Translations under genes and position numbers: made by a program | Notes under the pieces: generated by a model | What the model saw: the letters and a program-made list of their open reading frames with translations, nothing else | Databases searched by the model: none | Told to the model about the DNA's origin: nothing | DNA from: Cyanidioschyzon merolae | Lineage: Eukaryota | Assembly: GCA_000091205.1 (NCBI GenBank) | Contig: AP006495.2 | DNA length: 64,000 nucleotides | Reading direction: 5' to 3' (one strand) | Shown here: one piece after another, positions 1-64,000 of the stretch | Position numbering within the stretch: position 1 is the first letter of the stretch | Layout: each line of letters opens with the position of its first letter

Positions 1-420
1 GGCATGGTGTGCGGCAAGCCGATCGGACGTCAGCGGGCGAGACAATCGAAGACGACCGGCTCGCGATGTGGCGTGCTTGCACCACGAACAACGCGTGTGA
101 GGAGTTTCTGCACGCGGTATCGAACGCGTCGTTCAACACCCGGACCTGCCTGGTGCATCCGGTGCGTCCAGGAGCTCTGTGTTGAGCGGACATTCAAGGG
201 AACGTTTGTTTCGTAACGCAGCCGAGGTACTGTACGAAAGGCGCTGCAGTGTTTTGATGAACAGAAATCCGTGCCCAGGCGAGAGCGAGAACGGGATATT
301 CGCCTAGCGTCATTCACTGGCAGGTTATGGTTCAGCGATCCGGATAGACGTCAGAAGTGCATCGATAACGGTTTGCCGGGGCATTTACTGAGCGACCATG
401 GTGCTCCATGGTTCAACATC
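1..420. repeat. Direct repeat copy 1 (~418 bp, ~98% identical to 8824-9241). It may extend upstream of the window.
   Basis: Base-by-base comparison of 1-420 with 8824-9241 shows only a handful of mismatches. Identity ends after 'ttcaacat' in both copies. Confidence 0.85.
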
Positions 421-4100: not shown

Positions 4101-4973
4101 CACGCATCCACCTGGCTTCGTAGCGATATATGCAGCCTTCATTGAGCACAAGTACGGCGGGTGTCGAGCTTGCCCCTAGCCGCCACTACATCTCGCCGAG
4201 TGCGGTGGCGCTTTGGACTTCGAACTTGGTCAGCGTCGTTTCGAGGCGATCGCCGGCTGAGCGGCGATTCGTCGTCAAGGTGAGCGCGTCGCTTCTCAGG
4301 TGCGTGCCTGAGGCAGCAACCGACCGAAACGGGAAATCGCTTCTTGGGAGCCAGCATCTGGGATCGACCACGAGAGTTACGAGCAAAAGCTACGGCACTA
4401 CTACGGGACGTGAAACCTCTCCGTTCAATCGAGTCGGCGTTACCCCATTCGAAGGTTTCGGTGAGTGCCTGTCACTGATACTTTCGAGTTCCCAGAGGTT
4501 ACCTGTTCGCGGACGACCGAGAAGCGTGTGGAGGCTCTGACACCGACCTCAGGTGTATGCTCTGACATTGTTCCCAAAACTTGGTAACTGATCGCGCAAC
4601 CTCTAGTAGGCTTTTGGTTCGCCCATGCACTGCGCACGAGTTGGCTGTAGCTTCTAAGATGCTGGTTATGTTAGGCTCTAGTTTCCTGCACCCTGGGCAA
4701 GAGCCTTTTCATGGTAGCATTGCTGATTCATCACACTGGATCTCAAGTGGCAGTGGGTATAGGTGGGAGCTAGGTCCCGCGCTTTCCCTCAACGTTATGA
4801 TTGCGAGTCCAACGCACACGCACTCCGATTCCGGCGTCCGACAGACGACTTCAGCGGTCCCCGAACGAGCGCGACTAGTGACGCTCAGTAAAGGGAGCTC
4901 TAGCACAGGCTGGTGTGTTTCTCGTCGCAACATTACTTGCGAGCACGTCGCGTTCGTCGCCGTATCCAAACCC

Positions 4974-7263: not shown

Positions 7264-8823
7264 TTCGGAGGGTTAGCATTGCGGCACTAGGCGAGAACGG
7301 CGCTTGTATGCGCTGCGCTTCGCGGCCGCAGGTTCGTGTTTCCTGGTGTTTATACGTAGAGCGACGAATTCTGGAAGGGACATTCGGACGTGATCTTGCT
7401 AATATTACTTGTTTCTCTCACAGACGTTCAACAAAAGAAACGGATCCTGCAGATTCGACAGACATAGCAGATACACTCTACACAAGCGCTGCTAACATGC
7501 GAATCAATGGGGCTTACCTCTAGCGTGCAGGCATTCTACGTTCAGCACTTTGGTGAACCAGTACTCTCTAGGGCCGTGCGCTAAACGTCGAGCACCCGAA
7601 CAGAGCCTCTGCAACGCCGTCAACGCGACAGTCGTCCGAGCAGTCCATTCCGCTCCATCCATGCGTGCCGCATCAAATACGACCAGACAAGCCACAGAAT
7701 ATGAATGCTCCGCCCAGGTGCGACGGACGCTCCTGAGGCGACGCCCCCGGGGAAAGCAAAAAGCACGCCGAACAACACAGACCGGTGACTTCCGACTGAG
7801 ACGCGAACGCTGCGTGCAGCAAGCACGGGTTCCCGCCGCACTCGGCACGCCTGTATCCGGGCGAGACGCCACACCGCCTCGACAAGGGCATTCAAAGAGC
7901 GAGCGACATGCCGCTGGGCGTCTACAGAAGACCAGCCAGCATGCCGACTGCATCAGCCACTGCGGCGATTCAGTCGAGCGGTCGCTTGCAACTCGCCAAA
8001 CGCGCGAAATCCTTCTAGAGCCGGTCCTTCGTCGGTGCACGCTTCGTCGCTTCTCCTTCACACATGCCGCTGCCCTGCCCCGAGACAACGACGACGCCCA
8101 TCACTGAAAATCAGCCGAGGAGTGCGCAGCTTGTCTGGCGTCCCCGCCCCTCATTCCGAGAACGTTGCTAGGCGTTCCAGACGCGGGGCTGCCAGCGGTC
8201 CGCGTCCCTCAGAGAGCCTGCGATCCAACCTTCGTGAGGCACTGCAGCTGACGCTCGGCACCCCAGGGACAATACGAGTTCATTCTTCCAGGGCGTGGTA
8301 GTATCGGGAGTCGGGCGCGACGGATGCCACCAGGCCTATCGACGAGCGGAGTGACGGCCCCAGGACCCGTGTGGACGCGCTGAGAGTGCCGTATCGAGCA
8401 GCGCGGGATGCGCTTCACGCTTCGCTCAGGGAGTACGCGAGACTCTGGATGACTCACGCGGACAGTCTTTTGATCGAGTCCACGAGACAGCGCAATGGAG
8501 TCGCCGGCCGTTGCGGCCGTACGGGGCCAGTGAGCGTGCCCTCGCCAACATGTTCCATGACCACGAAGGGCAACTGGCCGATATATCGTTTCGCTCGATG
8601 GTGGTGATGGCGGTGGGCGTAGCGGCACCCGCTGGCACCGGGCGTGCCGGGGCACCCAAGCGCTGCACGCCTCTGCTCCCTCGACGAGCGTTTCCAACGA
8701 GTGCAGGACTCGATGCCATGCGATTCCCGTGGTTGGCTTTCCGACGACATCCACGCGTCACGGGCTCGGGTGCTCGCTGATCCCCAGGTAGCGAAGAAGC
8801 ACATGAAGCAGAGACGGATGCAC

Positions 8824-9241
8824 GGCATGGTGTGCGGCAAGCCGATCGGACGTCAGCGGGCGAGACAATCGAAGACGACCGGCTCGCGATGTGGCGTGCT
8901 TGCACCACGAACAACGCGTGTGAGGAGTTTCTGCACGCGGTATCGAACGCGTCGTTCAACACCCGGACCTGCCTGGTGCTTCCGGTGCGTCCAGCAGCTC
9001 TGTGTTGAGCGGACATTCGAGGGAACGTTTGTTTCGTAACGCAGCCGAGGTACTGTACGAAAGGCGCTGCAGTGTTTTGATGAACAGAAATCCGTGCCCA
9101 GGCGAGAGCGAGAACGGGATATTCGCCTAGCGTCATCCACTGGCAGGTTATGGTTCAGCGATCCGGATAGACGTCAGAAGTGCATCGATAACGGTTTGCC
9201 GGGGCATTTACTGAGCGACCATGGTGCTCCATGATTCAACA
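8824..9241. repeat. Direct repeat copy 2 (partner of 1-420)
   Basis: Near-identical to 1-420. The ORFs 8644..9039(+) and 8853..9140(-) duplicate ORFs 4..216(+) and 30..317(-). Confidence 0.85.
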
Positions 9242-16399: not shown

Positions 16400-16615
16400 T
16401 CCCAGATTGCGGTACGGATGGTACCATTCAGAGATGCGTCCAGCATTTCCATTCCAAGTTCCATAACCCATACTTCTTCTTTGATGTGCTGGTGGTTTTT
16501 TACGTTCTGTCGTGCGCCGAGTGCCTGCCCTGATCGTCCGTGATAGCGCCTGTGCCGCCAGTTTGGATGCATCACAGCGACAGAACCACTTTGCCATACC
16601 GCAGAGGGCGTCGGC
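16400..16615. repeat. Dispersed repeat family X, copy 1 (~210 bp). The other copy is at 48425-48635.
   Basis: 'cccatacttcttc...ccctgatcgtccg.gatagcgcct.t.gc...gcagagggc.tcggctcg.gg' is shared with the 48.4-48.6 kb copy in the same orientation. Confidence 0.7.
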
Positions 16616-16869
16616 TCGGGGCGCGGTTCACTCGCCACAGAATCGAGCCTCAAATTCGATTCGTGCTCAGCCGGTTTGTGGATGCAGACTTGCCTTCGGT
16701 GCACTGCGCGTTGGAGAAATTTGGCTGTTAGGATGTATCCTGGGGGCCGCTTCTCTCTTGCGCGATCGTGTGTGAAATTCGTGTGCGGCTCGCAACACGG
16801 ACTTGTGCTTGGCACCCACCAGTGGGTAGGTGCCCAAAGCGCTGGGCCGACCCGCAATGAACGGTAGTT

Positions 16870-17495
16870 CAGCGAGAGGCGTTGCGCAAAGGCATGCTCG
16901 CAGCGTCGGCACGCTCAACGCAGCGAAAACGTACCGCTCCAATGAGGTATATGAAGACCCATCAGCAGACGCCTGCCAGCCTTTTCCGACCAGCCGCATG
17001 CTATCGATTTCGGCTTCTCCCTATACATTTCGAGCCTGAGAGGCTACCCCACAGAGGGCGTGCGCGCCAGCTCCCCGGGGCTCCTCTCCGGCGCAGCACA
17101 TCTCCTGATGCTCGTTGCAGCATGAAAGTCTCGGTTCACGAATTCCATTCGTTTATTGCCTCCGTTTGCACTCACCAATGCAAGGAGCACTCGAACTCGT
17201 GCCCTCTGCGCCAATACAACCTCGTCATCGTTCCGTCTCGCAAACACCCTTGCTCGCCTATCTCGCCTTTTCTTCGTCTTCTTCTTCATCGTCGAATGCT
17301 CTACTTTGCTCGATGGTTGGCAAGAGGATAATTTTTTCGTTTGCTTCAAGCATCCGGAAATAACGGCCATCAAGGATCACCCATTTCCACATCCATACCT
17401 TTCCCTTGAATTTTTCGTTTTTTGAAAATGAACGCACTTCGAACGCGTCTGCTATGAGCCTCGACAGAGCATTTGCTGACGCTCGCCCGCTGCGG
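16870..17495 (-). mobile_element. TnpB/Fanzor-like element, 5'-truncated copy A (3' module only)
   Basis: The mini-ORF 17044..17373(-) ends in '...NGGNKRMEFVNRDFHAATSIRRCAAPERSPGELARTPSVG'. The downstream tail 'gcctctcaggctcg...aaaaggctggcaggcgtctgctgatgggtcttcatatacc...ttttcgctgcgttgagcgtgccgacgctgcg' is conserved with copies B, D, E and F. Confidence 0.6.
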
Positions 17496-26404: not shown

Positions 26405-27000
26405 ACAAAATTGTTCCACCTTCAGGTGAGTTTCATCAAGTGCGTTTTCGCGGTGTATAGCAGACGCGTTCCAAGTGAGTTCACTCTAAGAAATAGAAAA
26501 TCCATAGGAGAGATATGGGCGAAGAAGTCGGGGATCTGCTAGGATCGGCATCGCCGGCTGCAGGAAAAACACGAAGAAATCCTCTTTTCGCTGACCATGG
26601 GGCGAACAAGAACAACGACAAGAGCGACGATACTCGAGGGAAGGTGTTTGCCCAACGAGATGATGACGAGATTGTAGTGGCATATATGGCACGAGTATTA
26701 GGAATTTTTGCGCCTGTGAATTCAGTCAGCGTCAATGCACGTATGGAGTTTGTGACCCGACACTTCAACGACGCTATTGGTATCAGACGATGTATGGTGC
26801 TAAAGACGAGACCCTAGGACCTGCCACGATCCATCTTTGTGGGGCAGCCTCTCAGGCTCGTAGTGTGTGAGCAGAAACTGAAACGGATTGCAGGCGGTCT
26901 GTCATAAAAAGGCTGGGTGGCGTCTGTGAGTGGGTATGTTTATTCACTTTGTGTTCGTGGGAATGTTTCCGTTTCACTGACTGTCTTGGACCAGACATCA
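26405..27000 (+). mobile_element. TnpB/Fanzor-like element, 5'-truncated copy B (3' module)
   Basis: The mini-ORF 26515..26817 reads '...RGKVFAQRDDDEIVVAYMARVLGIFAPVNSVSVNARMEFVTRHFNDAIGIRRCMVLKTRP'. The 5' boundary block 'ttgttccaccttcaggtgagtttcatcaagtgcgttttcgcggtgtatagcagacgcgttccaag' and the 3' tail 'gcagcctctcaggctcg...attgcaggcgg...aaaaaggctgggtggcgtctgtgagtgggtat...tgtgttcgtgggaatgtttccgtttc' are both shared with the other copies. Confidence 0.6.
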
Positions 27001-30066: not shown

Positions 30067-31140
30067 CGCAACGTACTCGGTCCACAAACAGCCGCAGTCA
30101 GCGACGAATGAGCGGCTCGCTCAGTAGCTCGCAACTGCAGCTCCAGTACGAGTACGCAACGGATCGCAGACAGCCGCCACGAGGCCGCAGCGCTACGCAC
30201 AGCGCGCGACGCACCGTCAAGCGCTATCCTGCACTGGCGGCCGTCGCCGCAACGCAGGCGGATCGAATGCGCACGGGTATATATATGAATATGGAACCTC
30301 AATCATCACTTGCGTTCAAACCATAGCTGGAAACACCGCGTCCCATCTCGAATCGCGAAGTTAAGCAGCATTGGGCTCTCTGAGTACTGTGATGAGGGAT
30401 CGCACGGGAAACGGGAGTGACGCAAGTTCGCTTTTGCCACCACGTCGCGGTGACCTGTTCTAAAGCGCGCAGCAGCAGACGCGAGCCGGGTATTCTGGCG
30501 GGGAAGCACTGTGAGGCCGGCTTGCTCCGGAATACACTTGCAACCGGTGGTCCAGATCGACGACGATAACGAGTGGGTAACTGCGGAGGCCTGGTTGCAC
30601 AGAGCGATCTCGCCGCACTACGAACCGCAACACCTGCCGATATTCTGGAGGAGGCGCGATCGCCCCCGCACGACGAACCCCGTAGCACCCAGAGGGAGTA
30701 CGCACCCGCGCTACACCATGAATGCTAAAAAGGGCGGCAGGGCAGGGGCTGTCGCCCCGAACGCGTATTGCAGACAAACTAGCGCGTCACGTTCCGGTGC
30801 GTCGCGTTCTAGTCCGTCGCACAGCAACAGGAGCACTGGAAAAGATCATAAGCCAGCATGCTACCGTGCAGCGCACTGCACCGCCTTCGCTTTACGTCAT
30901 ACGGAACTAGACAGGAAAGTTGCCACCACGCCAGCCACGACTCCATCGATGCGAGCATCGCGCGTGCGCACGCGTGCCCGTCGCATCGACCCCTAAGCCG
31001 CCGTGTACAGAACACAACTGCCTCCGTTCGTCGCGAATCCGCAGCAACCTTCCCTCTGGCACAGAAAAACACATCGTGTGCATCACAGACGCCGGTGACA
31101 AGGCCGCGTATAGCACCAACGAACTCGCCACGAATCCGCA

Positions 31141-34100
31141 TCAGCATTGTTTGCGAGTATCTCGCGCCACGGTCCATTCCGGGATCGAGGCATTCAACGC
31201 CGTCGCCGGGGATGCGCCCAGAGTCGCCGTGCTCGAGAGCGCCTCGCGTCGTGCAACTAAATTCAAGCGCTCTGCGAAAAGCTCCTTCCGGTAAATCTCT
31301 ACCTGCTCCCGCTCCCGAAGGAACTCCTCTTCGAGCTGCTCAAGTACGTTCATCTTTTCTTCGAGTTTCCTCACCTGAGTCTCGATCGCCTGTTCAGTAG
31401 CCCGGTGCAGCTCTAGATGCTCAATGGCGGCGAGCTCCGCGGCCCGAGTGGCCGCAGCGCCAAGCGCCGTTGCCGCAACGGCCTGGATTGCATTCGCATC
31501 CGCAAGCGCTTCCGGTGGTGCGTCGCTTTTCATGATCGCTGCCAACGCGGCCCGGGCAGCAGCAGCAGCGACATCCGGCGAGACGCTGTTCGCGAGAAAC
31601 GCAATATGCGCCATCAAGGGGTTTCCGGCGTCGGCGAAGAGCGGCGGCTCGTTTCGTTCGGTCTGCACCGTCTCGCCAGCTACAGCGGGTACCGCTAAAC
31701 GACTCAAATCATCCTCGAGAAACGGATCTTCAATGGGTAGACGAATGAATTTGGTGATGCACGCATCGCGGGAACGAGTGCCAACGTGCTGAGCAACCGC
31801 ATCCCAGTCATCACCGTATGCCTCGATTCCTTCGAGAAGCTGCAGCACCTCAACATCAGTCCAGTCGTCCGTGCTCGGAGCTGTGAGGGTTCCAGTGGCG
31901 CTAGCCGCCGACCCCAGCGATAGAACAGGTCTTAATTCGATGAAATCTTTTCCATTGAAGTCCTCGGGAAACTTGCCCTGATGGTAGCATTCGGGGCACA
32001 GGTCCATATCGGCCTTGAGCAAACAGTGGTACCGGCGTTGGGAGCAGTCTCTCCCGCACACGTCACACTGGTACTCAATGGCTGCCGCTGCGGCATATAA
32101 TTCACGGCGCGTTGCCATGGGCGCCAGATGCATGCGCGATTTCGGAATACGCGACCCGTCGTCAAACAAGAATATGCGAGGAAGTCCGCCCTCAAGACCA
32201 GCTGAGCTTGCTGCCAGGCTTCCCGAGCTGGTGGAGATAAGCGTCGCACCGGAACCCGAAAACCCGCCGCTAACAGTCTGTGGGCGCGTCTCGGGTGCCA
32301 CTCCGTAGTTAATCAGGCCCCACTGCTCCAGAAAGGCGTGCACACGCATGACGGCACCCACATCGCCAGCGAGATGCCTCCGAACAGCTGTGCCTGTTAG
32401 GTAGCGGGTCGGATCCTGCCGCCACGTGTCAATCATAAAATTTCGGTAAAGCATGTATACTTCGGGCGTTTTCGAAGCAAATTTCCCAGAGAAAAACTCC
32501 GGCAACGCGCGTCGCTCAATGTCGTGAATCGCATCGATGCGAAACCATCGGCTGTGCGCGGGAACACGAATCGGCGACTTTTCACCAATCGCCGTGGCAG
32601 CAGCCGCAGCCGGAAGCGTTTCCCGCTCCGCGAGGCCACCGAGTGCCTCGGCGACGCGACGCGGTGCAAGCGATTCTCGATCACGTGGCGCGTGTGCTGC
32701 CGGCCCCGGAAGCGCATCCTCTTCGGCTGCCGCAGCGTCATTCCGCTCTTTTCGTCGTTCGCGTAATGCTTCTCGCTGCTGTGCTAACCTCTTCTGTAGC
32801 TGCTCATCCCGCGAAGATGCAGTTACATTGCGCATGCGCAGTGTCGCGTCATCTGGAACTAGCGGACGCACCGTTGGGCGTGAAATGCGCGGTGCAGCGC
32901 CGGCCGCAGCGCTTGGCTGCTCCGCATCGACCGCAGCGCAAGTCTCCGTTGTGAACGTGATCGGGCCAGCAATATTCGGTGCCGGAACTTGCTCCGCGGG
33001 TGCATTGCTCGAGCTTCCCGCGTCCTGGCTCGCTATCGGCGGTGCCAAGCGAACCTTGATCTTCATCGGCTCTGCGGATTCCTCTCGGACGGCGCGCACC
33101 GTCACCCGTTCTGGCGTGCCGTCTGGCTCCGGCTTCACGGGACTCGGTTCAGCGGATTTTCGTTTCGACGGCGTCGGTGCTGCGGTCTTCGACTCGGATC
33201 CTCGCAGGTGGCCATCGATGCGCGAGGCCGATGGCGGTTTCCACTCATCGACATTGAGCTTCTCCTCTTCGGGTATTACCTCATAGTCGTTTTCATTGCA
33301 CCACTCATTGAACTTTTCGCAATCCTCGAGAAATCTTTTCTGCACATGCCATATTTTGCCCTCAATCACTCCGGAGAGATTCTCCTCCTCTCCGTGCAGT
33401 TCGCCGTCGGGATCTTCTACCTCCTGAGCGGGAATCCATGAATCGTACGAATCGGGAAAGTACCACCAGTGCGTCAGTACTTGATTCCCTTTCCTTTTCA
33501 GACTCACGCAGTAGTCCTCTGCCTCGGTCTCAGCCTCTGTCGTGCCGGGTGGATCGGGGTACACAATATGTGTTGCCTCGCGAGGCGACGAAACGACGGA
33601 CGCACCATGCTTCCTTGCAATGGCGCTGAGGCGGTCAATCTCCGCCGAACCCAATGCCGGTGCGAAAAACAACCGCGGCATCTGGAGCTGTTTCCGTTTT
33701 ATCAGTTCCCGCTCAACTTCTTGGAGCATCTCTAAAAAAACTCCAGTCATATCGGGTTTGTGGAGATCAAAACGCCGTATTCCACGAGCAACCCTGAACC
33801 GAAAACAGCATTCGATAATTGTACGCAATGAGCCGTGTGCCGAGTAGTCGTGAAAGAGACGATTCGGCAGTTTCGTCATGAAACCCCGAATTTCTGGCGG
33901 CTCGACGGAGTTCCGTCCGAGAACCCGCTCTTGAAACTGAAGCAGGTTACCGGTCAGGAGGCTCAGCGCGCGCGGGGAGACGTCCACAGAGTCACCGGGT
34001 CGAAACCCCAGTTGTTCCGGCGATTCAGCGTTTAGCTGTGCCGAGATTGCCTCGAACTTCGCAATTTGATGAGGATCCTCGTAGTCTTTCATGGATATAT

Positions 34101-34317
34101 TACAGGACTTTACCCGCTTCCGCCGCGAATCCGCAGGTCTCTGACCTTCAGCTGACGGAAAAGCAGTGTCTTCCCGCGCATCCGCTGCAGCTCCTGTGCG
34201 CACTTCTTCAGACGGGGTAGACGTCGACTTGTTCCCGTCCGGGATGTGTGTTCCGTTGCCTTGCTGCTCTCGCGCGGTGCGGGAGCGTCTCTTCCGCGGG
34301 GGAACCATGAAAAACAC
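31141..34317 (-). CDS. SWI/SNF complex subunit SWI3/SMARCC-like (SWIRM - ZZ zinc finger - SANT - coiled coil)
   Basis: SWIRM: '[66 protein letters not shown]'. ZZ: '[35 protein letters not shown]'. SANT: '[48 protein letters not shown]'. The C-terminal coiled coil is '[47 protein letters not shown]'. Confidence 0.8.
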   Translation of the reverse strand: [1058 protein letters not shown]

Positions 34318-34318
34318 G

Positions 34319-35143
34319 TCACAGAGTTACTAGCTCCACCGAAAGACTTTCAAAAGTCGATAGCTTGAATATCAGTATACAGTAGTGGCGAGCTGCGCGC
34401 CCCAGATCATACGTCTCCAACTGATGCGCAGATGCCTCCCTGTCTTTTTTGGACCGGCCATCTACTACTGGTTTCAACTTGTTTCCGTAAAATTCCGCCT
34501 GGAGAGGTTCCCCCACAAAGTTGGCTCTTGTCAACTCTGGAGGCCTTCTTTCCATCACCGCACATCTCCTGATATTGATAGCGACATTAAAGTCTCGGTT
34601 CACAAACTCCATACGTTTCTTGCCATCATTGGTTGTACTAACCAATGCGATTAGTCCACGATCTTTCGCCCTCCCTTCCGGTGACTGCTTCGTCAGCGCT
34701 CCGTACTTTGATATATCCACAGGACTCCTCTGGCACTTTTCGATCTGCACGCTCTGGAGTATGCACCCCAGCTCATGGTGTGTATACGATGTTCGGAACT
34801 CATCTACAGGTATCGTAACGAGACGCCTTGTGCACTCCTTGTACGCTCTTGTCGTCGGAGCTGGTGGACATCCTTTTTGGGTCATCCAGCGCCCTGCTCC
34901 GCACGCTACTACGAGCCTCTGACTTTCATCCTCTTTGAAGGCACTCAACTCATTGAAAAAATTCGCGAATGCACGCGGTTTCCCACAATACAAGTTCATA
35001 CGCAAACGAGCCCACCGGGGCTTTGCATACTCATTCCACAGTGCATCCCAATGAGCAACGCGAACTTCCATGAATTCCTGACAAGCTTGAAAGTCTGCTC
35101 CGCGGCTCGTCATCTGGTTCATAGCTTCAAGGTGCTCTTGCAT
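34319..35143 (-). pseudogene. TnpB/Fanzor-like RuvC nuclease, C-terminal portion (RuvC-II/zinc-finger remnant and RuvC-III). The ORF reads through into the flank and ends 1 nt from the SWI3-like ATG.
   Basis: Motifs as above. The expected CxxC...CxxC zinc finger is absent or degenerate. The frame is continuous for 274 aa but is separated by ~236 bp containing stops from the upstream ORF 35379..35993. Confidence 0.45.
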
Positions 35144-36750
35144 TCCTGCATTTCACGTCTCATTTTTCCCTCGCATTCAGTATTCCCGACTCTCGGTGAT
35201 ATCCCGCTCGTGAGAGGTTTAACTGATGCATGTCTTTCTGGCATAAATTGCCTTCAATACCATCCTCCGCACGCTTGGGTACTGCGATGTTATGATATTC
35301 GTATTCATAGGGTCCGCGCCATCGACAATGTCGTTCTCATGCACTTCCTGCGTCGTAGGATACACCTGCTTCTTTTCTTCATGCTTCGTCATGGGCGATA
35401 TCGAAGACGGACCAGTACGATCTGTCTCCAAGCGCCGATTGTGTACATATATGGCTACTCCATCGCGTTCGATCATCCCCGTGAGTACATTTCGCTTGTC
35501 CTTTTTGTGACGTTTGAAATCGAAGATATTCTTCCAAGTACGTCTCCTGCTTTGTACCGGTGAACTCTGTCTTCCTTACATCGAACTCCGGACAGATCTC
35601 CTTCATGATGCCGTACAGGATTCTGGAGTCGATCGTCACAACGCGTGACTTGATGTTGCACAACGGCAGGACGTTGAAGTGCTTCCCCAGAAGCGCAGCC
35701 TTCCGTTTCTCCGACTCTTCATTTTTTCCCGCGCCTACGTCCTTTCCAGTCTTGCGTTCCAGGTCTCGGTCCAAAAACACGAGATAGTGCAGGATTAGGG
35801 TATAGGATCCTTTACCATATTTTTCCATATTTGATATTTTTTCTTGTGAATTCGGCAGCCCCAGTACCGCAAGGTGCTTTCGAATAGCCGCGCGGATCAC
35901 AGAAGCTTCATTCCTTCTCCCGCGTGACATCTTCCCGTCGACGAGTTCGATCTCTTGTGCATTCTTACTCTCGTTCGCGACGCCATTGATCATGGCTCAT
36001 CTCCCTTTCCGAGCGAGACCCGGGTACAGCGCATAGACGGCGCGTACCATGAAGCGTTTGACGTTCACGGTCATCTGATTCCTCAGGTTCGTGAGGTACT
36101 TCATTGCCCCGTAGGCGTAGACCTCCGCGAGTCACCTCTGTATCTAGAACCGCTGCAGCGGTATTTGGGTAATTCTCGTTGAGGGCATGCACTCGCTCAT
36201 TTTCGTCGACGTTTCCCCTCTACCAACGATCAAGTGGCAAATAAAGGTCCTGCTGAAAAAAATCCTCCGGAACCGCGACTGTTTTGATGTCTGTCAGGTC
36301 GCGATACATCCATTTCACCAAATGCATTAGTCCTGAAGGAGCCTTTACATTACTCACGGAGTATGACACGACACGGTTTCTGATGGCCTCTCGCATCTTT
36401 GCCTTGTACGCATTCTTGGTATGTCCAAGAAGACAGACTTTCACACCGACTCTTCATACTGTCGCCTTTCTTGCAGCCTTTGATGTCGGGCTTCCTTCTT
36501 TTGCTCCTTCGTCTCGTCCTGTTCTTCTTTGCTTAGCACTATTTTTCATTCTCTCCGTAAGTCGGCGACACTGTGCCTCCGGGATCCTCCACTTGCTTTT
36601 CCATACCTTTCCTTTTTAATATTTTATGAAAAATAACGCTCGTTAAACGCGTCTGGTAGAAACCGCGAAAAATCACTTTCGTTCACTGACTTGAGGATTA
36701 GAACACAATTGAATTGAAAAACTATACGTTGCCACGACTTTAATGCAAAT
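34380..36750 (-). mobile_element. TnpB/Fanzor-like element, longest copy (C), a ~2.4-kb low-GC island with split ORFs
   Basis: GC drops to roughly 45-48% across this interval, against ~58% for the flanks. ORFs 35379..35993(-) and 34319..35143(-) lie in tandem on the same strand. The 3' ORF contains 'PVDEFRTSYTHHELGC' (compare TnpB 'VDPAYTSQTCS.CG') and 'KKRMEFVNRDFNVAINIRRC' (RuvC-III-like). The tail 'ggccggtccaaaaaagacagggaggcatctgcg' is a diverged version of the tail shared by the other copies. The 5' boundary is approximate. Confidence 0.55.
35379..35993 (-). pseudogene. Upstream ORF of element C (possible N-terminal/RuvC-I part of the TnpB-like protein)
   Basis: Same strand and immediately 5' of the C-terminal ORF. 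'[14 protein letters not shown]' could be a RuvC-I-like 'xxIDxG' segment. The assignment is weak. Confidence 0.3.
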
Positions 36751-37757
36751 ACAACTTGACCGGTAGAGCAACAAGACAACGAATGGTCACGAATGCATTT
36801 CCCTTCAAAGGCGACATGCGCGTCGTGTCTCGAGGCTGCCAGGTTTGGAGATGCGCGTATCGAGCGCGCTATATAGAACAAAGAACAGAGACTCACTTGT
36901 AACTAGCAACGAGATAACGAGTTCTTTCCCTGTGTACGATCAACGTCAAAAATGGGGAAAAGATTTCCATATTGTCCAAAATATTCCTCATAGACGGACG
37001 GTCCCGCGAGCCGGACAAGTCTACCAGGCTGGTGCTTCCTGCTCCCCCAGCGGCAGGCGCTTTCGTGAACTCCGAGCAGCACGTCCGCAACGCCATTCAT
37101 TGTGGAATTACAAGTCGGCAGAATGCTTCTGGGCGTGTCGCCCTGGTCGCAGAGGGCTCCTAATACGCTGCTTCACGCTGCCGCAGGCAGAGGGTCTATC
37201 TGCCCAGGTATCAGCCTCTCAAAATGATATTTAGCCCTGATTCCGTAGCAGATGGAGCACGCCTCGAGCCGACGCCCTCTGTGGTATAAAAAAGCCGTTC
37301 TAGCTCTATGAACTATCTGCTCCAGCTGTTCAGGCGCAAAGGCGGATACGGAAAGGCAGGTACTCGGCGCACGATAGAACATAGGAGACGACCAGCATAT
37401 CCGAGAGGAATTATGGTTAACGAAGCTTGAAGGAAGGGTGCAGCATGATGAAAGCTTTTGAGCTTTCCAATATCCATCCCGCAGTCTGGGATCCGTAGTC
37501 CATACAAACGTGCTGTCATCGAAAAGCAAAAAATCGGACACACAGACTCGACGCGTCGACGGCGCTACGTTTGGCGGCTAGCGGCCTGGTGGCGCCTTTT
37601 CGCTGGGCGCAATTCGCTGCGGCGGACTGACTGAATGGGCGATAGCGCGGCAGCCATTGGAAGGCCGCGCTGTGGTATGTACGGAACCTAAGACGCTGGA
37701 GTCGCATGGGGTTGGACTCTTGACCAAAGAACCCTTCAACTTCTCCTTTGTGTACAT

Positions 37758-40759: not shown

Positions 40760-41350
40760 AAGACAACGAAAAAGCGCTCGCGAAAGATTCGCAACGGAAC
40801 GAAATCGTTTCACGAACACAGGGTAAATGAATACCCATTCACAGACTCCTTCAAACCTTTTTCGACCGGCCGCCTGTTATCGCTTTAAGCTTCTCCTTGT
40901 TGAATTCGAGCCTGAGAGGCTGTGCGAAAAAATCAGATCAAAGCAGCTCCTCGGGTCAAGTCTTCGTCAACGCATATCTCCTGATTCTTGTTGCAGTGTT
41001 AAGGTCTCGGTTCACGAATTCCATGCGTTTATTGCCTATGGTGGAACTCACCAATGTAGGGAGTCCTCGAACTCGCGTCCTCAAAGCCATTTCGCTGCTC
41101 TGTCAGCTCTCACTTATTTTCTATATCCTAAGCGCTGCGCTACCCTCTCCCCGTCAAGACCTTCTAAGTTGTACACCCTAGATCACCTCTTATTTTCTGA
41201 GAATGCACGCACTGTATTATGCCCTTTGGTGAGGACCCTCCCGGCAGGAGAAGCACTTGCGCAGGAGAGACGACATGGGTCCCAGTATGTCACCGTGCGC
41301 TGAACTCTTGAACGGTTCGCCCATTGGAGCGATCATAACGTTTCACAATT
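40760..41350 (-). mobile_element. TnpB/Fanzor-like element, degenerate 5'-truncated copy D (no intact ORF)
   Basis: Minus-strand translation gives 'GNKRMEFVNRDLNTATRIRRYALTKT*' with a degraded motif. The tail 'cagcctctcaggctcgaattcaacaaggagaagcttaaagcgataacaggcggccggtcgaaaaaggtttgaaggagtctgtgaatgggtattcatttaccctgtgttcgtgaaacgatttcgttccgttgcg' aligns with copy E. The ORFs 40827..41303(+) and 40897..41181(+) are antisense mirror frames. Confidence 0.55.
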
Positions 41351-48424: not shown

Positions 48425-48635
48425 ACCAGCGCGCGGTGAAGCATCCATCGCTCCACACCCTACTTCCAGGCTCCGTAGCCCATACTTCTTCTCGGGTATA
48501 ATGGTGGTTTGATGCTTTCAATCGAGCACCTAGTGCCTTCCCTGATCGTCCGCTATAGCGCCTATAGCGCCGGTGCGGTTGCAGCACGGAGACGGAACGG
48601 CTTTGCAGTACCGCGGAGGGCATCGGCTCGAGGAT
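48425..48635. repeat. Dispersed repeat family X, copy 2
   Basis: Aligns with 16400-16615 in the same orientation. The ORFs 48408..48695(-) and 16384..16857(-) share the peptide 'RRY.GRSG.ALGAR...H...EEVW', which reflects this nucleotide repeat. Confidence 0.7.
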
Positions 48636-59974: not shown

Positions 59975-60504
59975 GTTTCCCCTTCACTGACTTGCCGGAT
60001 TGCATTATCATCATTGAAGGCAAGGCCTCCGCGGAGCAATATTTGAAACGCCATCTGCAGCATCCTCAAGGATGCTACTGCTAGTGATTCCGTCATGGGG
60101 GGCGCTGCCAGCTTTCCGGTAGCTGTGATGCCTGCAACTTTGCTGGTACTCTGTTCCCTTGATGCATGATTGGAGCGAATCTTCGGTTTGTGTACGTTAG
60201 CGAGCATGATGAGATGCCACGTGCACTGCGCCTGCGTCGGTTTCATGTTATGTGGAGGCTTTGAGGATCAGAATGGATGTGACGGCCATGAAAGCAAATG
60301 TGGCATCCTAGAATTGCGATGGAACGCAAAAGAAACGATGCCTAGTGCTGACCTCCCAAAGAGGAAACGGCAGAGGATGCTGGCAGCTCCTTTGCGATGG
60401 TGCCAGACCTTGATGGACATTTGATCCACGGGTTATCCCTACCTAGTGATAAACGACTTGTCCGTGCCAGTGGAACGAAGACTCCAGCGTGCTTGTATAC
60501 GTTT

Positions 60505-61140
60505 CATAATCTTTCACCTACATTGTGTTCCGGCCCTAGGTGGGTGTAATCAAATGCTTTTTCGAGGTTTATAGCAGATTCGCTCGAAAGGCGTTCTTTT
60601 TCAGAAATCGAAAATCTACAAAATGGTTTGGACGTGGAAATTGGGGGTCCCGGAGTTCCGTTGTCCCCGAGTTCAACAAAAAAAGGAAAAAATCCTCTTC
60701 TCGCCAACCTCGCAGCGAAGAAGAGCATGTTACGAAGATGAAGATTGTGACGAGACTGTAGTGGGACAGAGGGTACGAGTTCGAGGAATTCTCCCACTAC
60801 TGTGTTCAACTGGCGGGAAGAAACGCAACGAGTTTGTGAACCGGGACTTCAATGCCGCCATGAATATCAGACGATGCACGGCGAAGCCGAGACCCGACCA
60901 GCCCACGCGAGCCAACTCTGTTGGGCAGCCTCTCAGGCTCGACGCGCAAAAGTAGAAGCTGAGGGCGATTGCAGGGGGCCCGCCAAGAACGGCTGGGAGG
61001 CGTTTGTGACTGGATATCCATTTACCCTACAGCTGCGAAACTTTTTCGCTCCGTTGAGCTTGCAGACCCTGCGCATCCCAACTGGACTCGAACCTAATAT
61101 CGATGTATCCAGAAAGATTAGGGGCGCATTAAAAGTACAG
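60505..61140 (+). mobile_element. TnpB/Fanzor-like element, 5'-truncated copy E (3' module), the best-preserved mini-ORF
   Basis: The mini-ORF 60623..60955 reads '...DCDETVVGQRVRVRGILPLLCSTGGKKRNEFVNRDFNAAMNIRRCTAKPRPDQPTRANSVGQPLRLDAQK'. The 5' block 'cattgtgttccggccctaggtgggtgtaatcaaatgctttttcgaggtttatagcagattcg' and the 3' tail 'gcagcctctcaggctcg...gaagctgagggcgattgcagggggcccgccaagaacggctgggaggcgtttgtgactggatatccatttaccctacagctgcgaaactttttcgctccgttgagcttgcagaccctgcg' are both shared with the other copies. Confidence 0.65.
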
Positions 61141-61257
61141 AAGAAACGCTCGTCCATGCAGAAACGTCGCGGAGGATCGCCCTAGTCGCATTCTGCAACG
61201 TGGCCGAGTAATCTGGTCGGAGATATTGCCCTGTTGTCTCTGGATTTGCAGCAATCT

Positions 61258-62709
61258 TCATTTTGCTGCTGCTGGTGCTGCTGTTATCGAAGTCGGATTA
61301 GCCTTCGACTCGGAATCGCCGGTCGCCTCATGCAGTTTGTCGAGCATGCCGCGCATGCCGACCTCAACATCACTCAAAGCTCGCTTCAAAAAGCTCTCCA
61401 CTTGTGCCTTGTACTCTTCGGGATGCACTTTGAAATGTGTGGCATGTTGGCTCTGTTCCCAAACTTTTTGGTAGACCTCCAGCCCCCGACGTCTCTGAGC
61501 ATCGATGTACTCACGCACGCTCTTGTCAAGGTCTTTCACAATGCTGTCATCGAGGCTGTAGAGGTAGAGTTGCGGAACGGATGGGAGTTGCACGTTTTGC
61601 AGGGCGTGTTCCGCTGCCCGGAAACCCTCAGCAACATTCAGAAATCGAAACAGAGCTTCCGCAACAGCATTCCAGACACGGTACCCCACTTTTGGACAGG
61701 CTGCATAGAGACCTTGGGCTAGAGAACTCGCCTGCATGTGTCCTGGTCCCGAATCGAATATCACTCCTCGGATCTGCCGCTGGAGTTTTCGACCCATATC
61801 CTCTGTGACGTACTGGCCCCGCTGAATGATGTCTAGCATATAGCCGTAGATTCCTGTGCCAATAGAAAACGAATGGACCACTATCGGTCTATTTTCAGGG
61901 ATTTCGTCCATTAAATGTAGCACACGCAGTGCTTGTCGTCGCGAGAAGGCCGGAATCAACGCCGTCTGGAGACCATTAAACAACGTGATCACATCGTAGC
62001 CACGGTCTCTGTACCACTCTGCGTATTTCACCATATGTCGCTGCTGTGCACCGAGCCACGACAACAAAATAACAACGGGTCGTTGCGAGTCGCCAACAAA
62101 GGCTGCTGCATCTACGACGGAGCCCGCAACGTGCCTCCTCGTATGCGGATTTTCATTGAATTGCGTCGCCAGTAGTACCGTCCCGAACAGAGAAGCACGG
62201 AGACATTCCGGGTTTGTGTCACCTAGTCTTCGCCAGATACAGAAGAGCAAGGCCCCCAGTTGCGTCAGAAGCGAGAGTGGTCCATTCTCGTCGTTCCCGT
62301 CTGGTCTTTCGTTACGACCTCGGCCGCCGTCGCTACCACCGCCGCCGCCGCTGTGGCCACTGTTGCCGCCGTATCCTCCACCACATAAACTTGCTAACGG
62401 GCTCTCAGTCCCAGATGCGGATCCTTGCGTCCACACTTTCGGGTTAAACGGCAAAGAAGCACGTTTTCGCTCTAGCACAGTGCAGAGGGCGTGACTCCGA
62501 GGTTCTTCAGCAGAACGTTGTACGACGTGACAGCGCGGAAGCGTTGCAAAGCTCGTTCCTGACCTCGCTCGCCGAACACTGGTGCAGTTCCTCCTCCTAA
62601 TCAAAAACTTCTCTGAAGATACAGCCCCCGAAGGAGTGAATGCGACTCGCAAACACGCCATTCGCACAAAGACCTCGGCTTTCACGGAACAGAGCACTGT
62701 CGCTGTCAA
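61258..62709 (-). CDS. TMEM53/DUF829 family protein (alpha/beta-hydrolase-like) with a Gly-rich N-terminal region
   Basis: 'PVVILLSWLGAQQRHMVKYAEWYRDRGYDVITL', 'IVVHSFSIGTGIYGYM', 'VIFDSGPG' and 'PQLYLYSLDDSIV' parallel TMEM53 '[33 protein letters not shown]', 'FHVFSNGG', 'IFDSAPG' and 'ELYLYSRADEVV'. Confidence 0.75.
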   Translation of the reverse strand: MTATVLCSVKAEVFVRMACLRVAFTPSGAVSSEKFLIRRRNCTSVRRARSGTSFATLPRCHVVQRSAEEPRSHALCTVLERKRASLPFNPKVWTQGSASGTESPLASLCGGGYGGNSGHSGGGGGSDGGRGRNERPDGNDENGPLSLLTQLGALLFCIWRRLGDTNPECLRASLFGTVLLATQFNENPHTRRHVAGSVVDAAAFVGDSQRPVVILLSWLGAQQRHMVKYAEWYRDRGYDVITLFNGLQTALIPAFSRRQALRVLHLMDEIPENRPIVVHSFSIGTGIYGYMLDIIQRGQYVTEDMGRKLQRQIRGVIFDSGPGHMQASSLAQGLYAACPKVGYRVWNAVAEALFRFLNVAEGFRAAEHALQNVQLPSVPQLYLYSLDDSIVKDLDKSVREYIDAQRRRGLEVYQKVWEQSQHATHFKVHPEEYKAQVESFLKRALSDVEVGMRGMLDKLHEATGDSESKANPTSITAAPAAAK

Positions 62710-63839: not shown

Positions 63840-64000
63840 TGTAATGCTTCGTGGAACGAAAAATGTCCAACGACCATGGAGGGTACATGTATCTACCCTC
63901 TCGCAGACGCTTCCCAGCTTGTATTCGACCTGCCCCCAACTATCGGCTTCAGCTTCCCTTTGTCCGCTTGGAGCCTGAGAGGCCATCCCCCGAAGTTGGC
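63840..64000 (-). mobile_element. TnpB/Fanzor-like element, copy F. Only the 3' tail is inside the window, and the body lies beyond 64000.
   Basis: Reverse complement of 63840-64000: 'gccaacttcgggggatggcctctcaggctccaagcggacaaagggaagctgaagccgatagttgggggcaggtcgaatacaagctgggaagcgtctgcgagagggtagatacatgtaccctccatggtcgttggacatttttcgttccacgaagcat'. This encodes '...ANFGGWPLRL...' and aligns with the copy E tail block by block. Confidence 0.6.

Follow-up and report, generated by a model that had tools for sequence, protein, structure and literature searches.

The 64,000-nucleotide stretch of DNA analyzed here (the window) is part of chromosome 13 of Cyanidioschyzon merolae 10D, with 10 of its ORFs matching C. 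merolae 10D proteins in the range BAM81064-81080 exactly, and it carries a dispersed repeat family whose copies, designated A through F, are listed with their component parts in Table 1. When positions 60301-61300, which encompass copy E, were compared with the rest of the window by blastn, matches were obtained to A (16899-17475(-), 65% over 579 bp, E=5e-34), B (26424-26937(+), 66% over 519 bp, 6e-33), D (40792-41075(-), 66% over 284 bp, 1e-16), C (34555-34624(-), 80% over 70 bp, 3e-12) and F (63877-63983(-), 71% over 107 bp, 2e-7). Thus, the repeat family proposed in the original prediction is real and resides at roughly the places given, but its six loci do not all share a module of ~600-650 bp. 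A module of ~580 bp, composed of a 5′ part of ~240 bp and a 3′ part of ~350 bp, is common only to A, B and E, which, like the other short copies in the window, are ~65-70% identical to one another. Of the module, D has kept no more than ~300 bp at the 3′ side, F is interrupted by the end of the window, and C is similar in its coding region only, its tail being unrelated (32-43% identity). The extent assigned to C had been too small, and the homology of E does not reach 61140 as proposed: family-wide similarity stops at 61058, and the sequence common to E and A continues to 61073. Identity is indeed lost after the last conserved block, where similarity to the flanks falls to 21-45%. At the gathering threshold, an Rfam search of the whole window matched only 5S rRNA, and a tRNA search of the window found none.

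Table 1. Fanzor1-derived features of the window, with the evidence for each
Feature	Position	Strand	Description and evidence
Second extra remnant	3-182	(+)	Weak match
Extra remnant	8257..9047	(+)	Highly diverged, from another Fanzor1-like element; tblastn 24-30% identity, E=1e-6; A1 profile 1.1e-6
Copy A	16899..17487	(-)	Short deletion-derivative family, like E; A5 profile E=1.7e-7
Copy B	26424..26981	(+)	Short family; RuvC-III Asp replaced (TRHFNDAIGIRRC); A5 profile 5e-4
Copy C	34330..37529	(-)	Near-full-length (~3.2 kb) CMe-1A-type Fanzor1 pseudogene; several frame disruptions
Copy C, 5′ module	~36860-37529	(-)	TE-N2_CMe-like
Copy C, small hairpin	~36858-36875	(-)	
Copy C, ATG	36604	(-)	
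Copy C, ORF fragments	36220-36444, 35379-35993, 35219-35476, 34319-35143	(-)	34322-35152 matches A5 profile, E=1.4e-61
Copy C, 3′ tail	34330..34406	(-)	Degenerate two-hairpin tail of full-length subfamily; covariance model R1, 28.6 bits, E=6e-4
Copy D	40771..41093	(-)	5′-truncated ~300-bp 3′ fragment, short family; A5 profile 2.5e-6
Copy E	60515..61073	(+)	Short, internally deleted, decayed Fanzor1 element; blastn and alignments
Copy E, mini-ORF	60623..60955	(+)	110 aa; N-terminal remnant fused to RuvC-III/C-terminal remnant; A5 profile E=4.2e-14 (hmmsearch)
Copy E, RuvC-III motif NRDFNAAMNI	60839..60868	(+)	Aligns to family NRDxNAAlNI and SpuFz1/PpFz1 NRDM/NRDQ
Copy E, decayed C-terminal coding sequence	60869..61009	(+)	RRCTAKPRPDQPTRANSVGQPLRLDAQK*KLRAIAGGPPRTAGRRL*; single-frame translation with in-frame stops (*)
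Copy E, true post-ORF tail	61010..61073	(+)	Two weak hairpins; fold z=-1.18
Copy F	63849..64000	(-)	3′ end of short-family copy, cut by window end

In E, the 5′ segment shows homology to the start of full-length elements, covering their 5′ UTR and first codons, and the 3′ segment corresponds to the last ~100 codons plus the tail. The mini-ORF that joins these remnants is closed by an in-frame premature stop (TAG, 60953-60955). By its sequence, E is a non-autonomous, ‘ghost’-like element. A single derivative with an internal deletion, which kept the 5′ UTR, the first codons, the final ~100 codons and the 3′ end, gave rise to copies A, B and E, as indicated by the match of their 5′ part to the 5′ UTR and start codon of full-length elements and by a junction that is common to the copies. 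Copies D and F are 3′ fragments. Copy C belongs to a sister subfamily of the short copies. Its family stop codon has been mutated from TAG to TGG, and a 99% identical counterpart is present in JGI contig L001.

The ORF fragments had been read as TnpB- or Fanzor-like, and this assignment is borne out by profile comparisons, from which they are Fanzor1/TnpB-superfamily remnants. Profile A5, which comprises 71 diverse relatives recruited (E down to 1e-105) by a profile containing the window's own ORF, matches the solved structures of PpFz1 (9cf0, 5.4e-22), SpuFz1 (8gkh, 3.9e-14) and GtFz1 (9cer, 5.5e-7), and it also matches fragments of copies C, E, A, D and B (Table 1). Such a diverse profile was needed because phmmer, as well as a shallow profile of close copies, yielded only noise against the PDB. 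In the resulting alignments, GADPG(NTN), VDEFRTS and NRDFNAA(INI) fall on the RuvC-I, RuvC-II and RuvC-III catalytic sites of PpFz1 and SpuFz1 (Saito et al., 2023, PMC10432273; Xu et al., 2024, PMC11423790), such that the family carries the split RuvC triad D…E…D in order. The VDEFRTS block of copy C, which had been singled out previously, belongs to the motif that aligns with RuvC-II. Within the window, C is the only copy with all three motifs, which lie there on different frames, each of them broken; copies A, D and E are left with RuvC-III only, and copy B carries H in place of the RuvC-III Asp. The ORF ending V(N/T)R(D/H)(F/L)(N/H)xAxxIRR, predicted for all six loci, occurs in every copy but F, and no RuvC-III motif is visible in the part of F that lies inside the window. 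Searches with the family gave 218 close homologs, 450 related loci in hot-spring metagenomes and 1368 representative relatives.

Other searches were less informative. Pfam gave no usable match on the window ORFs or their close homologs, its TnpB models were without significant match on the window ORFs, and Cas12f1-like_TNB reached only E=0.2-0.5 on these ORFs (E=0.53 for the mini-ORF of E). This last model matches 14 of the 71 relatives (best 3.1e-5), all under the gathering score. The zinc-ribbon region of the CMe consensus reads HH…C…C rather than CxxC…CxxC, and an AlphaFold model of homolog P0003, made from a shallow alignment, was unusable (pLDDT 43). Assignment to a bacterial IS200/IS605 TnpB was rejected, given that there was no above-threshold Pfam match and no transposase ORF in the 5′ modules examined.

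Fanzor1 elements of C. merolae are not new, having been in the literature since 2013. Bao and Jurka (2013, Mob DNA 4:12; PMC3627910) described CMe-1A from the same host genome as a family of ~150 copies that are ~80% identical to a consensus of ~3 kb, that encode only a Fanzor1 protein, and that have no terminal inverted repeats (TIRs) and no determinable target site duplication (TSD). The 5′ 635 bp of CMe-1A is TE-N2_CMe, an independent repeat. The elements studied here are likewise multi-copy in the C. merolae genome, and our search for terminal inverted repeats found none, in agreement with that description. Copy C fits it, with ~3.2 kb, a single fragmented Fanzor1 ORF as its only gene and a separately repeated 5′ module of ~600-730 nt that is also found without Fanzor at other loci and at window positions 16455-16644 and 48456-48633. 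We conclude that each of the six loci holds an old and no longer active member of the C. merolae Fanzor1 transposable element family, which by its published description is CMe-1A/TE-N2_CMe. The short copies form a deletion-derivative sublineage of the same family. [quoted passage not shown] Neither the ~600-bp deletion derivatives nor 3′ terminal hairpins or an ωRNA appear in the CMe-1A paper (PMC3627910).

The reading proposed for these loci would make each an active guide-RNA gene, in which a deeply conserved, non-coding tail of ~300 nt, overlapping the ORF end, would serve as a functional OMEGA-type scaffold followed by a live guide. Two observations on which this proposal was built are real: the tail does lie where a Fanzor-like ORF ends, and identity does vanish beyond its last block. 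In addition, solo fRNA/ωRNA copies and ORF-less ‘ghost’ loci do exist in C. reinhardtii and S. punctatus. However, the conservation had been taken to be independent of reading frame, and yet a single frame reads through the family C-terminus (…QPLKVELYEKKLEAVVGGRSKKAGRRL…) in all copies, interrupted by in-frame premature stops. The differing stop positions are thus nonsense mutations in pseudogenes. The ~140-170 nt that follow IRRC are decayed C-terminal coding sequence, leaving a true post-coding remainder of only ~50-65 nt. In E, the bulk of the supposed non-coding tail is such sequence (60869..61009), which matches residues 397-475 of the 478-aa homolog P0008 (tblastn). As judged from this reading frame, most of the conserved ‘tail’ is former C-terminal coding sequence that later acquired nonsense mutations.

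The degree of conservation is also unremarkable, with tail identity of 57-73%, no different from the 65-70% of the 5′ part or the 61-72% of the coding part, an evenness that would be expected of neutral decay. A 10-copy alignment of the short tails contained no compensatory changes for either of two candidate structures, and covariance model R1 does not find the short-family tail. The post-ORF tail of E can form two hairpins (GGAT..ATCC, and GCGAAA-CUU-UUUCGC at 61035-61049), but it is not significantly structured. Like it, the tails of A, B, F and C fold no better than shuffled sequences, and D alone, with a long hairpin, folds better (z=-4.4). The tail of C, with z=+1.15, therefore no longer has the structure. 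Moreover, every ORF in the window is broken, and the copies are mutually only ~65-70% identical. Six active guide-RNA genes are a very improbable explanation, which is already largely refuted by these data. It is unlikely that the window relics encode an ωRNA, and very unlikely that any window copy, including E, makes a working RNA or protein.

A separate candidate stem (CGUCUGCA/UGGAGACG) lies inside the coding end, within coding sequence, and pairs in ~75% of alignment cells.

Intact members of the sister subfamily present a different picture. Their post-stop tail of ~75-95 nt is structured and forms two hairpins, the terminal one of which adjoins the end of homology. These hairpins are seen in individual folds, with z=-2.3 to -6.2 in four preserved copies. 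When 70 distinct tails were aligned with the covariance model, 71.8% of cells pair, compared with 33-54% when the alignment is slid. In this alignment, which is fitted to the model and drawn from related copies, double-sided changes occur in 21 of 28 pairs versus 13.1±1.7 in shuffles (0/500), and 69 cells are changed on both sides versus 39.9±5.3 (0/500). The signal is weaker in a plain MAFFT alignment (13 double-change pairs versus 10.7, 74/500; 37 cells versus 25.5, 0/500) and marginal within the type-I seed alone, and RNAalifold found no consensus structure on the MAFFT tail alignments. When the two strands were compared, the sense strand had the more stable fold in 54 of 60 copies (p=2e-8), reflecting many G·U pairs.

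Fanzor1 proteins have been known since 2023 to be guided by ωRNAs (Saito et al., 2023; PMC10432273), and Fz1 ωRNAs are 75-150 nt in length with two or more stem-loops (PMC11423790). The tail of the intact elements parallels the ωRNAs of SpuFz1 and PpFz1, and therefore an ωRNA is plausible for these elements by analogy with the known Fanzor1 arrangement (PMC10432273; PMC11423790). We envision that the tail folds into a small GGCG/CGCC hairpin and a long terminal hairpin that together form a putative ωRNA scaffold, and that the guide would be the ~15-20 nt of flanking DNA that directly follow this terminal hairpin, which is also its place in SpuFz1 and PpFz1. The Fanzor1-ωRNA complex might then cut matching sites flanked by a target-adjacent motif (TAM). 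We lean towards the view that intact CMe-1 tails are ordinary Fanzor1 ωRNAs, and hold this with more reserve than the overall explanation, which we consider highly probable, that the loci in the window are inactive Fanzor1-element copies whose tail is mostly former coding sequence. Other likenesses to SpuFz1 and PpFz1 include a single ORF that fills the element and the presence of ORF-less or internally deleted ‘ghost’ copies in the genome. In contrast, Spu-1 has 30-nt inverted repeats and a CATA TAM, whereas CMe-1 lacks TIRs, and a search of the 5′ border of the TE-N2-type module found no conserved motif that could define a TAM or TSD. At ~780 aa, the CMe protein is also longer; it contains acidic repeats of 24 aa in tandem, and its consensus does not show the canonical CxxC…CxxC pattern of a zinc ribbon.

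The terminal hairpins could instead be DNA-level cis signals for recognition or termination by a transposition machinery, which may be of a single-strand (HUH-type) or rolling-circle kind. This possibility, which we regard as unlikely although deserving of attention, would account for the absence of TIRs and of a detectable TSD (see also PMC3627910), for the hairpin at the very 3′ end, and for a second, small hairpin that borders the Fanzor core on its 5′ side and occurs with a compensatory variant. It would also suit the sharp, conserved 3′ ends and the variable or truncated 5′ ends, to which four different 5′ modules are attached; the top strand is favored with DNA parameters as well (49/60), and other Fanzor1 genes reside inside Helitrons (Bao and Jurka, 2013; PMC3627910). 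However, no HUH, RepHel or other transposase ORF was seen in the 5′ modules examined, the subfamily-specific modules having only short or low-complexity ORFs. There is no Helitron-like CTRR end 10-12 nt past the hairpin, because the hairpin adjoins the element end, and the many G·T/G·U pairs of the stem are better suited to RNA than to DNA. A role as a DNA signal does not exclude an ωRNA, because the right-end sequence of IS200/IS605 elements serves both purposes.

A combined reading strikes us as improbable, and ordinary Fanzor1 ωRNAs in the intact tails are likelier. In it, CMe-1 would be a hairpin-ended element without TIRs or TSDs whose mobility in a eukaryotic nucleus relies on a single-strand (IS200/IS605-like or other HUH-type) mechanism; its two-hairpin 3′ terminus would double as the ωRNA scaffold of a Fanzor1 from a thermoacidophile, and the ~600-bp derivatives would be ‘ghost’ carriers of that guide-RNA end. 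Compatible with this reading are the hairpins on either side of the Fanzor core, 3′ ends that are sharp where 5′ ends vary, the sense-strand bias and the fact that no transposase was found. Bacterial TnpB-ωRNA systems of IS200/IS605 elements (ISDra2 type) are similar in that they have a RuvC nuclease of the same superfamily, lack TIRs and TSDs and carry hairpins near their ends; their ωRNA spans the 3′ part of the gene as well as the right end, and flanking DNA supplies its guide. They differ in that the window ORFs score below threshold with Pfam TnpB/OrfB models, a Y1 TnpA partner was not found, the CMe host compartment is a eukaryotic nucleus, and the CMe protein falls in the Fanzor1 clade and not with TnpB proper. 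The Helitron-borne Fanzor1 elements CRe-1/2/3 of Chlamydomonas (Bao and Jurka, 2013) are similarly non-autonomous and carry Fanzor1 only; their 3′ hairpin is subterminal, and their 5′ ends are fuzzy or variable. CMe elements differ from these in lacking 5′-TC and 3′-CTRR termini, in having a hairpin that adjoins the end and is not 10-12 nt before it, and in that no RepHel relative was seen. A Helitron assignment was dropped on the basis of these termini, the 5′ start being TTTTTCGATGACAAAACG and the hairpin lying at the homology end.

That the mini-ORFs, such as the one in E, have been domesticated as small proteins, or that the repeats are host regulatory elements, we find barely credible. 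The mini-ORFs do start with the element-derived ATG and retain the NRDFNAA motif, but their stops fall at different places in each copy, and the end of the frame is not conserved. Divergence is even, as if neutral, and RuvC-I and RuvC-II are deleted, such that no nuclease is possible.

Very little changes for biology, since the Fanzor1 family was published in 2013 and ωRNA guidance in 2023. There is, however, a modest lesson: conservation past a short ORF that seems independent of frame can come from former coding sequence that has decayed and acquired nonsense mutations. C. merolae grows at about 42 °C and a pH of about 2, recombines homologously with high efficiency and is almost intron-free. 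If intact copies are active, this alga would be a convenient natural host in which to study the role of Fanzor for a TIR-less transposon, as well as a possible source of a heat-tolerant Fanzor1.

Two additional remnants missed by the original prediction, at 8257-9047(+) and, with weak support, near the start of the window, are also present, and the 64-kb window holds 7-8 Fanzor1 copies or fragments.

The DNA around the repeats carries large uninterrupted eukaryotic ORFs (SWIRM/SANT/ZZ, Spc7, TFIIF-beta, mitochondrial carrier, 6PGD and isopropylmalate dehydrogenase) and a 5S rRNA gene. Ten ORFs are identical to C. merolae 10D proteins BAM81064-BAM81080 (locus tags CMM220C onward) and, judged by its sequence, the window is nuclear DNA of this red alga.

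A self-comparison of the window with locus E as the query confirms the dispersed repeat, and the family of six loci (A to F) in the original prediction is therefore real. However, a multiple alignment reveals that the whole ~580-bp unit is common only to A, B and E. Copy D comprises only the 3′ ~300 bp, copy F is interrupted by the window end, and copy C has only a coding stretch in common with the others. Two remnants missed originally (8257-9047 and 3-182) are much more diverged than the listed copies. Over their 5′ ~240 bp, A, B and E match full-length elements from the 5′ UTR through the ATG into the first codons. The junction between the 5′ and 3′ parts is common to all three, which therefore descend from a single internally deleted, non-autonomous ancestor. 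In this they resemble the ‘ghost’ loci of S. punctatus, which lack an ORF, and the solo copies of fRNA in C. reinhardtii.

Features in the window, with identities of copies A, B, C, D and F measured against locus E
Feature	Position	Strand	Evidence
Locus E (query)	60538-61073	+	
Copy A	16899-17475	-	65% over 579 bp, E=5e-34
Copy B	26424-26937	+	66% over 519 bp, E=6e-33
Copy D	40792-41075	-	66% over 284 bp, E=1e-16
Copy C, part matching E	34555-34624	-	80% over 70 bp, E=3e-12
Copy F	63877-63983	-	71% over 107 bp, E=2e-7
Copy C, whole extent	about 34330-37529	-	core and 5′ module ends
Copy C 5′ module, non-coding, ~600-730 nt	36860-37529	-	starts TTTTTCGATGACAAAACGTTTACAT at ~37529
Copy C-type 5′ modules without Fanzor	16455-16644; 48456-48633	+; +	
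Core-border hairpin	~36858-36875	-	
Fanzor1-like remnant	8257-9047	+	tblastn 24-30% identity; profile A1, 1e-6
Remnant, RuvC-III region	3-182	+	weak match to profile A5, 1.3e-3
Copy D tail, with long hairpin	40765-40849	-	
SWI3-like ORF	31141-34317	-	
5S rRNA gene	30308-30428	+	Rfam RF00001, 94.3 bits; between 6PGD-like and SWI3-like genes

Neither the copy C ORF nor the mini-ORFs nor close homologs have a significant Pfam match, and PDB searches by phmmer and by a shallow profile were both unsuccessful. For the 274-aa copy C ORF, 218 homologs were found, and a profile that includes this ORF collects 1368 cluster representatives, many of 600-700 aa. Profile A5, built from 71 of these, matches the solved Fanzor1 structures of Parasitella PpFz1 (9cf0, E=5.4e-22), Spizellomyces SpuFz1 (8gkh, E=3.9e-14) and Guillardia GtFz1 (9cer, E=5.5e-7), and its alignments place the family motifs iDPGr, vdEFRTt and NRDxNAAxNI onto RuvC-I, II and III of these structures. 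Pfam Cas12f1-like_TNB gives hits to 14 of the 71 relatives (best 3.1e-5), all of them scoring under the gathering threshold. Searched against the six-frame translation of the window, A5 recovers C (1.4e-61, plus upstream fragments), E (4.2e-14), A (1.7e-7), D (2.5e-6) and B (5e-4). Because A5 matches both the structures and these fragments, the protein was correctly read as Fanzor/TnpB. Directly before RuvC-I, full-length relatives have a tandem array of two to six 24-aa acidic repeats (VTKDEEKEEAGPATQEVEDNDLVV), whose number differs between copies (loci L010:4400-4710 and L005:1900-2130; homologs P0008, P0014 and P0035).

This assignment is correct but was published already in 2013, when Bao & Jurka listed a single Fanzor1 family for C. 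merolae (PMC3627910). They described CMe-1A as having about 150 copies, which each share ~80% identity with a ~3-kb consensus, some still encoding an intact protein, without TIRs and with a TSD that is not determinable; its 5′ 635 bp is 95% identical to TE-N2_CMe, a separate ~70-copy element (PMC3627910). Our reconstruction from related loci agrees with this description. The common core, ~2.75 kb long, begins at a small hairpin and ends about 60-95 nt beyond the stop codon, no terminal inverted repeats are present, and the 5′ modules differ between subfamilies. The module of copy C, which also occurs without Fanzor in the window and in many metagenome loci, fits TE-N2_CMe; upstream of its start there is no conserved motif. 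The small hairpin (GCGCTC-GGT-GAGCGC; about 4830-4850 in the loci) lies where the core joins four different subfamily-specific 5′ modules, and is GCGCG…CGCGC in copy C, with a compensatory variant GTGCG…CGCAC.

The extent of copy C follows from the start of its 5′ module. This copy has several frame breaks, and the family stop codon is mutated. It ends only a few bases away from where the long SWI3-like ORF starts (34317-34330, -), and copy C thus lies directly upstream of that gene or in its 5′ region. One JGI metagenome contig (L001) carries copy C and the neighbor gene in the same arrangement at 99% identity.

The ~300-nt tail that had been proposed as a deeply conserved, non-coding guide-RNA scaffold proves to be mostly former coding sequence. 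In intact homologs the protein extends about 55-60 residues beyond IRRC (…CAVLEKRPPELTRENFVGQPLKVELYEKKLEAVVGGRSKKAGRRLHVSWRRFV*), and A, D and E align by tblastn to this C-terminus up to residue 471-475 of a 478-aa homolog. Translation in the RuvC-III motif frame gives the same peptide in each copy, with scattered in-frame stops: …QPLRLDAQK*KLRAIAGGPPRTAGRRL* in E, …SVG*PLRLEMYREKPKSIACGWSEKAGRRLL… in A, and similar translations in D and B. The supposed non-coding blocks GCCTCTCAGGCTCG, GAAGCTGA..GCGAT.GCAGG and AAAAGGCTGG.GGCGTCTG are codons for QPLRLE, KLK.I.GG and KKAGRRL. Conservation is therefore not independent of frame, and the differing stops are nonsense mutations; the true remainder after ‘RRL’ is about 50-65 nt. 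Nor is the tail unusually conserved, as evident by pairwise identities of 57-73%, no different from those of the coding part (61-72%) and the 5′ part (65-70% among A, B and E). Such equal identity in all segments is the pattern that neutral decay of old insertions would leave. Identity is indeed lost beyond the last block, with flanks at only 21-45%, and the tail of copy C shows no relationship to that of the short family (32-43%). What was put forward as evidence for a 300-nt ωRNA scaffold is thus an artifact: a decayed coding region was taken for non-coding sequence.

When two candidate hairpin models are applied to ten independent short tails, 70-82% of cells pair, but covariation does not exceed that of shuffles under either model: double-change pairs number 0 or 3, and the observed pairing is reached by 279/500 or 450/500 shuffles. 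Relative to dinucleotide shuffles, the tails of E (z=-1.2), A (-0.8), B (-0.3), F (-1.5) and C (+1.2) are unexceptional, and D alone stands out (-4.4); the 3′ arm of its long hairpin lies outside the family's common sequence. Given broken or deleted ORFs, diverged and unstructured tails, and uniform decay, function is very unlikely for the window loci, E in particular.

Better-preserved relatives come from 450 related loci in a handful of JGI metagenomes; 80 of these loci were retrieved. In the full-length subfamily, nucleotide conservation holds at ~90% as far as about 60 nt beyond the stop, where it drops steeply. Folded individually, these tails form two hairpins: a small one, GGCG-loop-CGCC, in which the loop is variable, and a long terminal one (…CACCGYYGGCGYCGTTCGA-CTT-TCGAACGGCGTTGNTGGTG…), the outer 3′ arm of which changes along with the 5′ arm and extends to the homology end. 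Hairpin variants are compensatory (TTCGA/TCGAA, TTCTA/TAGAA, and TTTTTC/GAAAGA or GAAAGG). Covariance model R1, built from 20 tails, detects about 85, all on the sense strand immediately 3′ of Fanzor ORFs; in the window it finds only the copy C tail, weakly (28.6 bits).

In the R1 alignment of 70 distinct sequences, 71.8% of cells pair versus 33-54% with slid partners. Both-sided changes occur in 21/28 pairs versus 13.1±1.7 in shuffles (0/500) and in 69 cells versus 39.9±5.3 (0/500). The signal is weaker in a plain MAFFT alignment (37 versus 25.5 cells, 0/500; pairs without excess), and covariation in the R1 seed alone is marginal. In four preserved tails, z ranges from -2.3 to -6.2. Folds of the sense strand are more stable than those of the antisense in 54/60 copies (-18.9 versus -14.1 kcal/mol, p=2e-8), an effect of the many G·U pairs.

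The known ωRNAs of Fanzor1 proteins are short (75 nt for PpFz1, 150 nt for GtFz1), and in all of them the guide is preceded by a first stem-loop and one or more others (PMC11423790). The CMe-1 tail is alike in position, size and two-hairpin layout, and CMe-1 homology ends exactly at its 3′ end. From these likenesses we lean towards the view that intact CMe-1 elements encode an ωRNA in the 3′ tail, in which case the two hairpins would form the putative ωRNA and the guide would be read from flanking DNA. Alternatively, or in addition, the hairpins could be DNA-level signals for transposition. Sharp 3′ ends combined with variable or truncated 5′ ends, in an element lacking TIRs and a detectable TSD, are consistent with this possibility, but the 5′ modules examined revealed no transposase. 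A Helitron was also considered and rejected, its hallmarks being absent from the element.

Upstream of other full-length copies, at a distance of 0.7-1.4 kb, there are additional tail-only or 5′-truncated copies of the 3′ end (L029:470-544, L031:4048-4122, L030:2475-2546, L035:3420-3497 and L077:1267-1326). This arrangement points to insertions that are clustered or nested and often truncated at the 5′ end.
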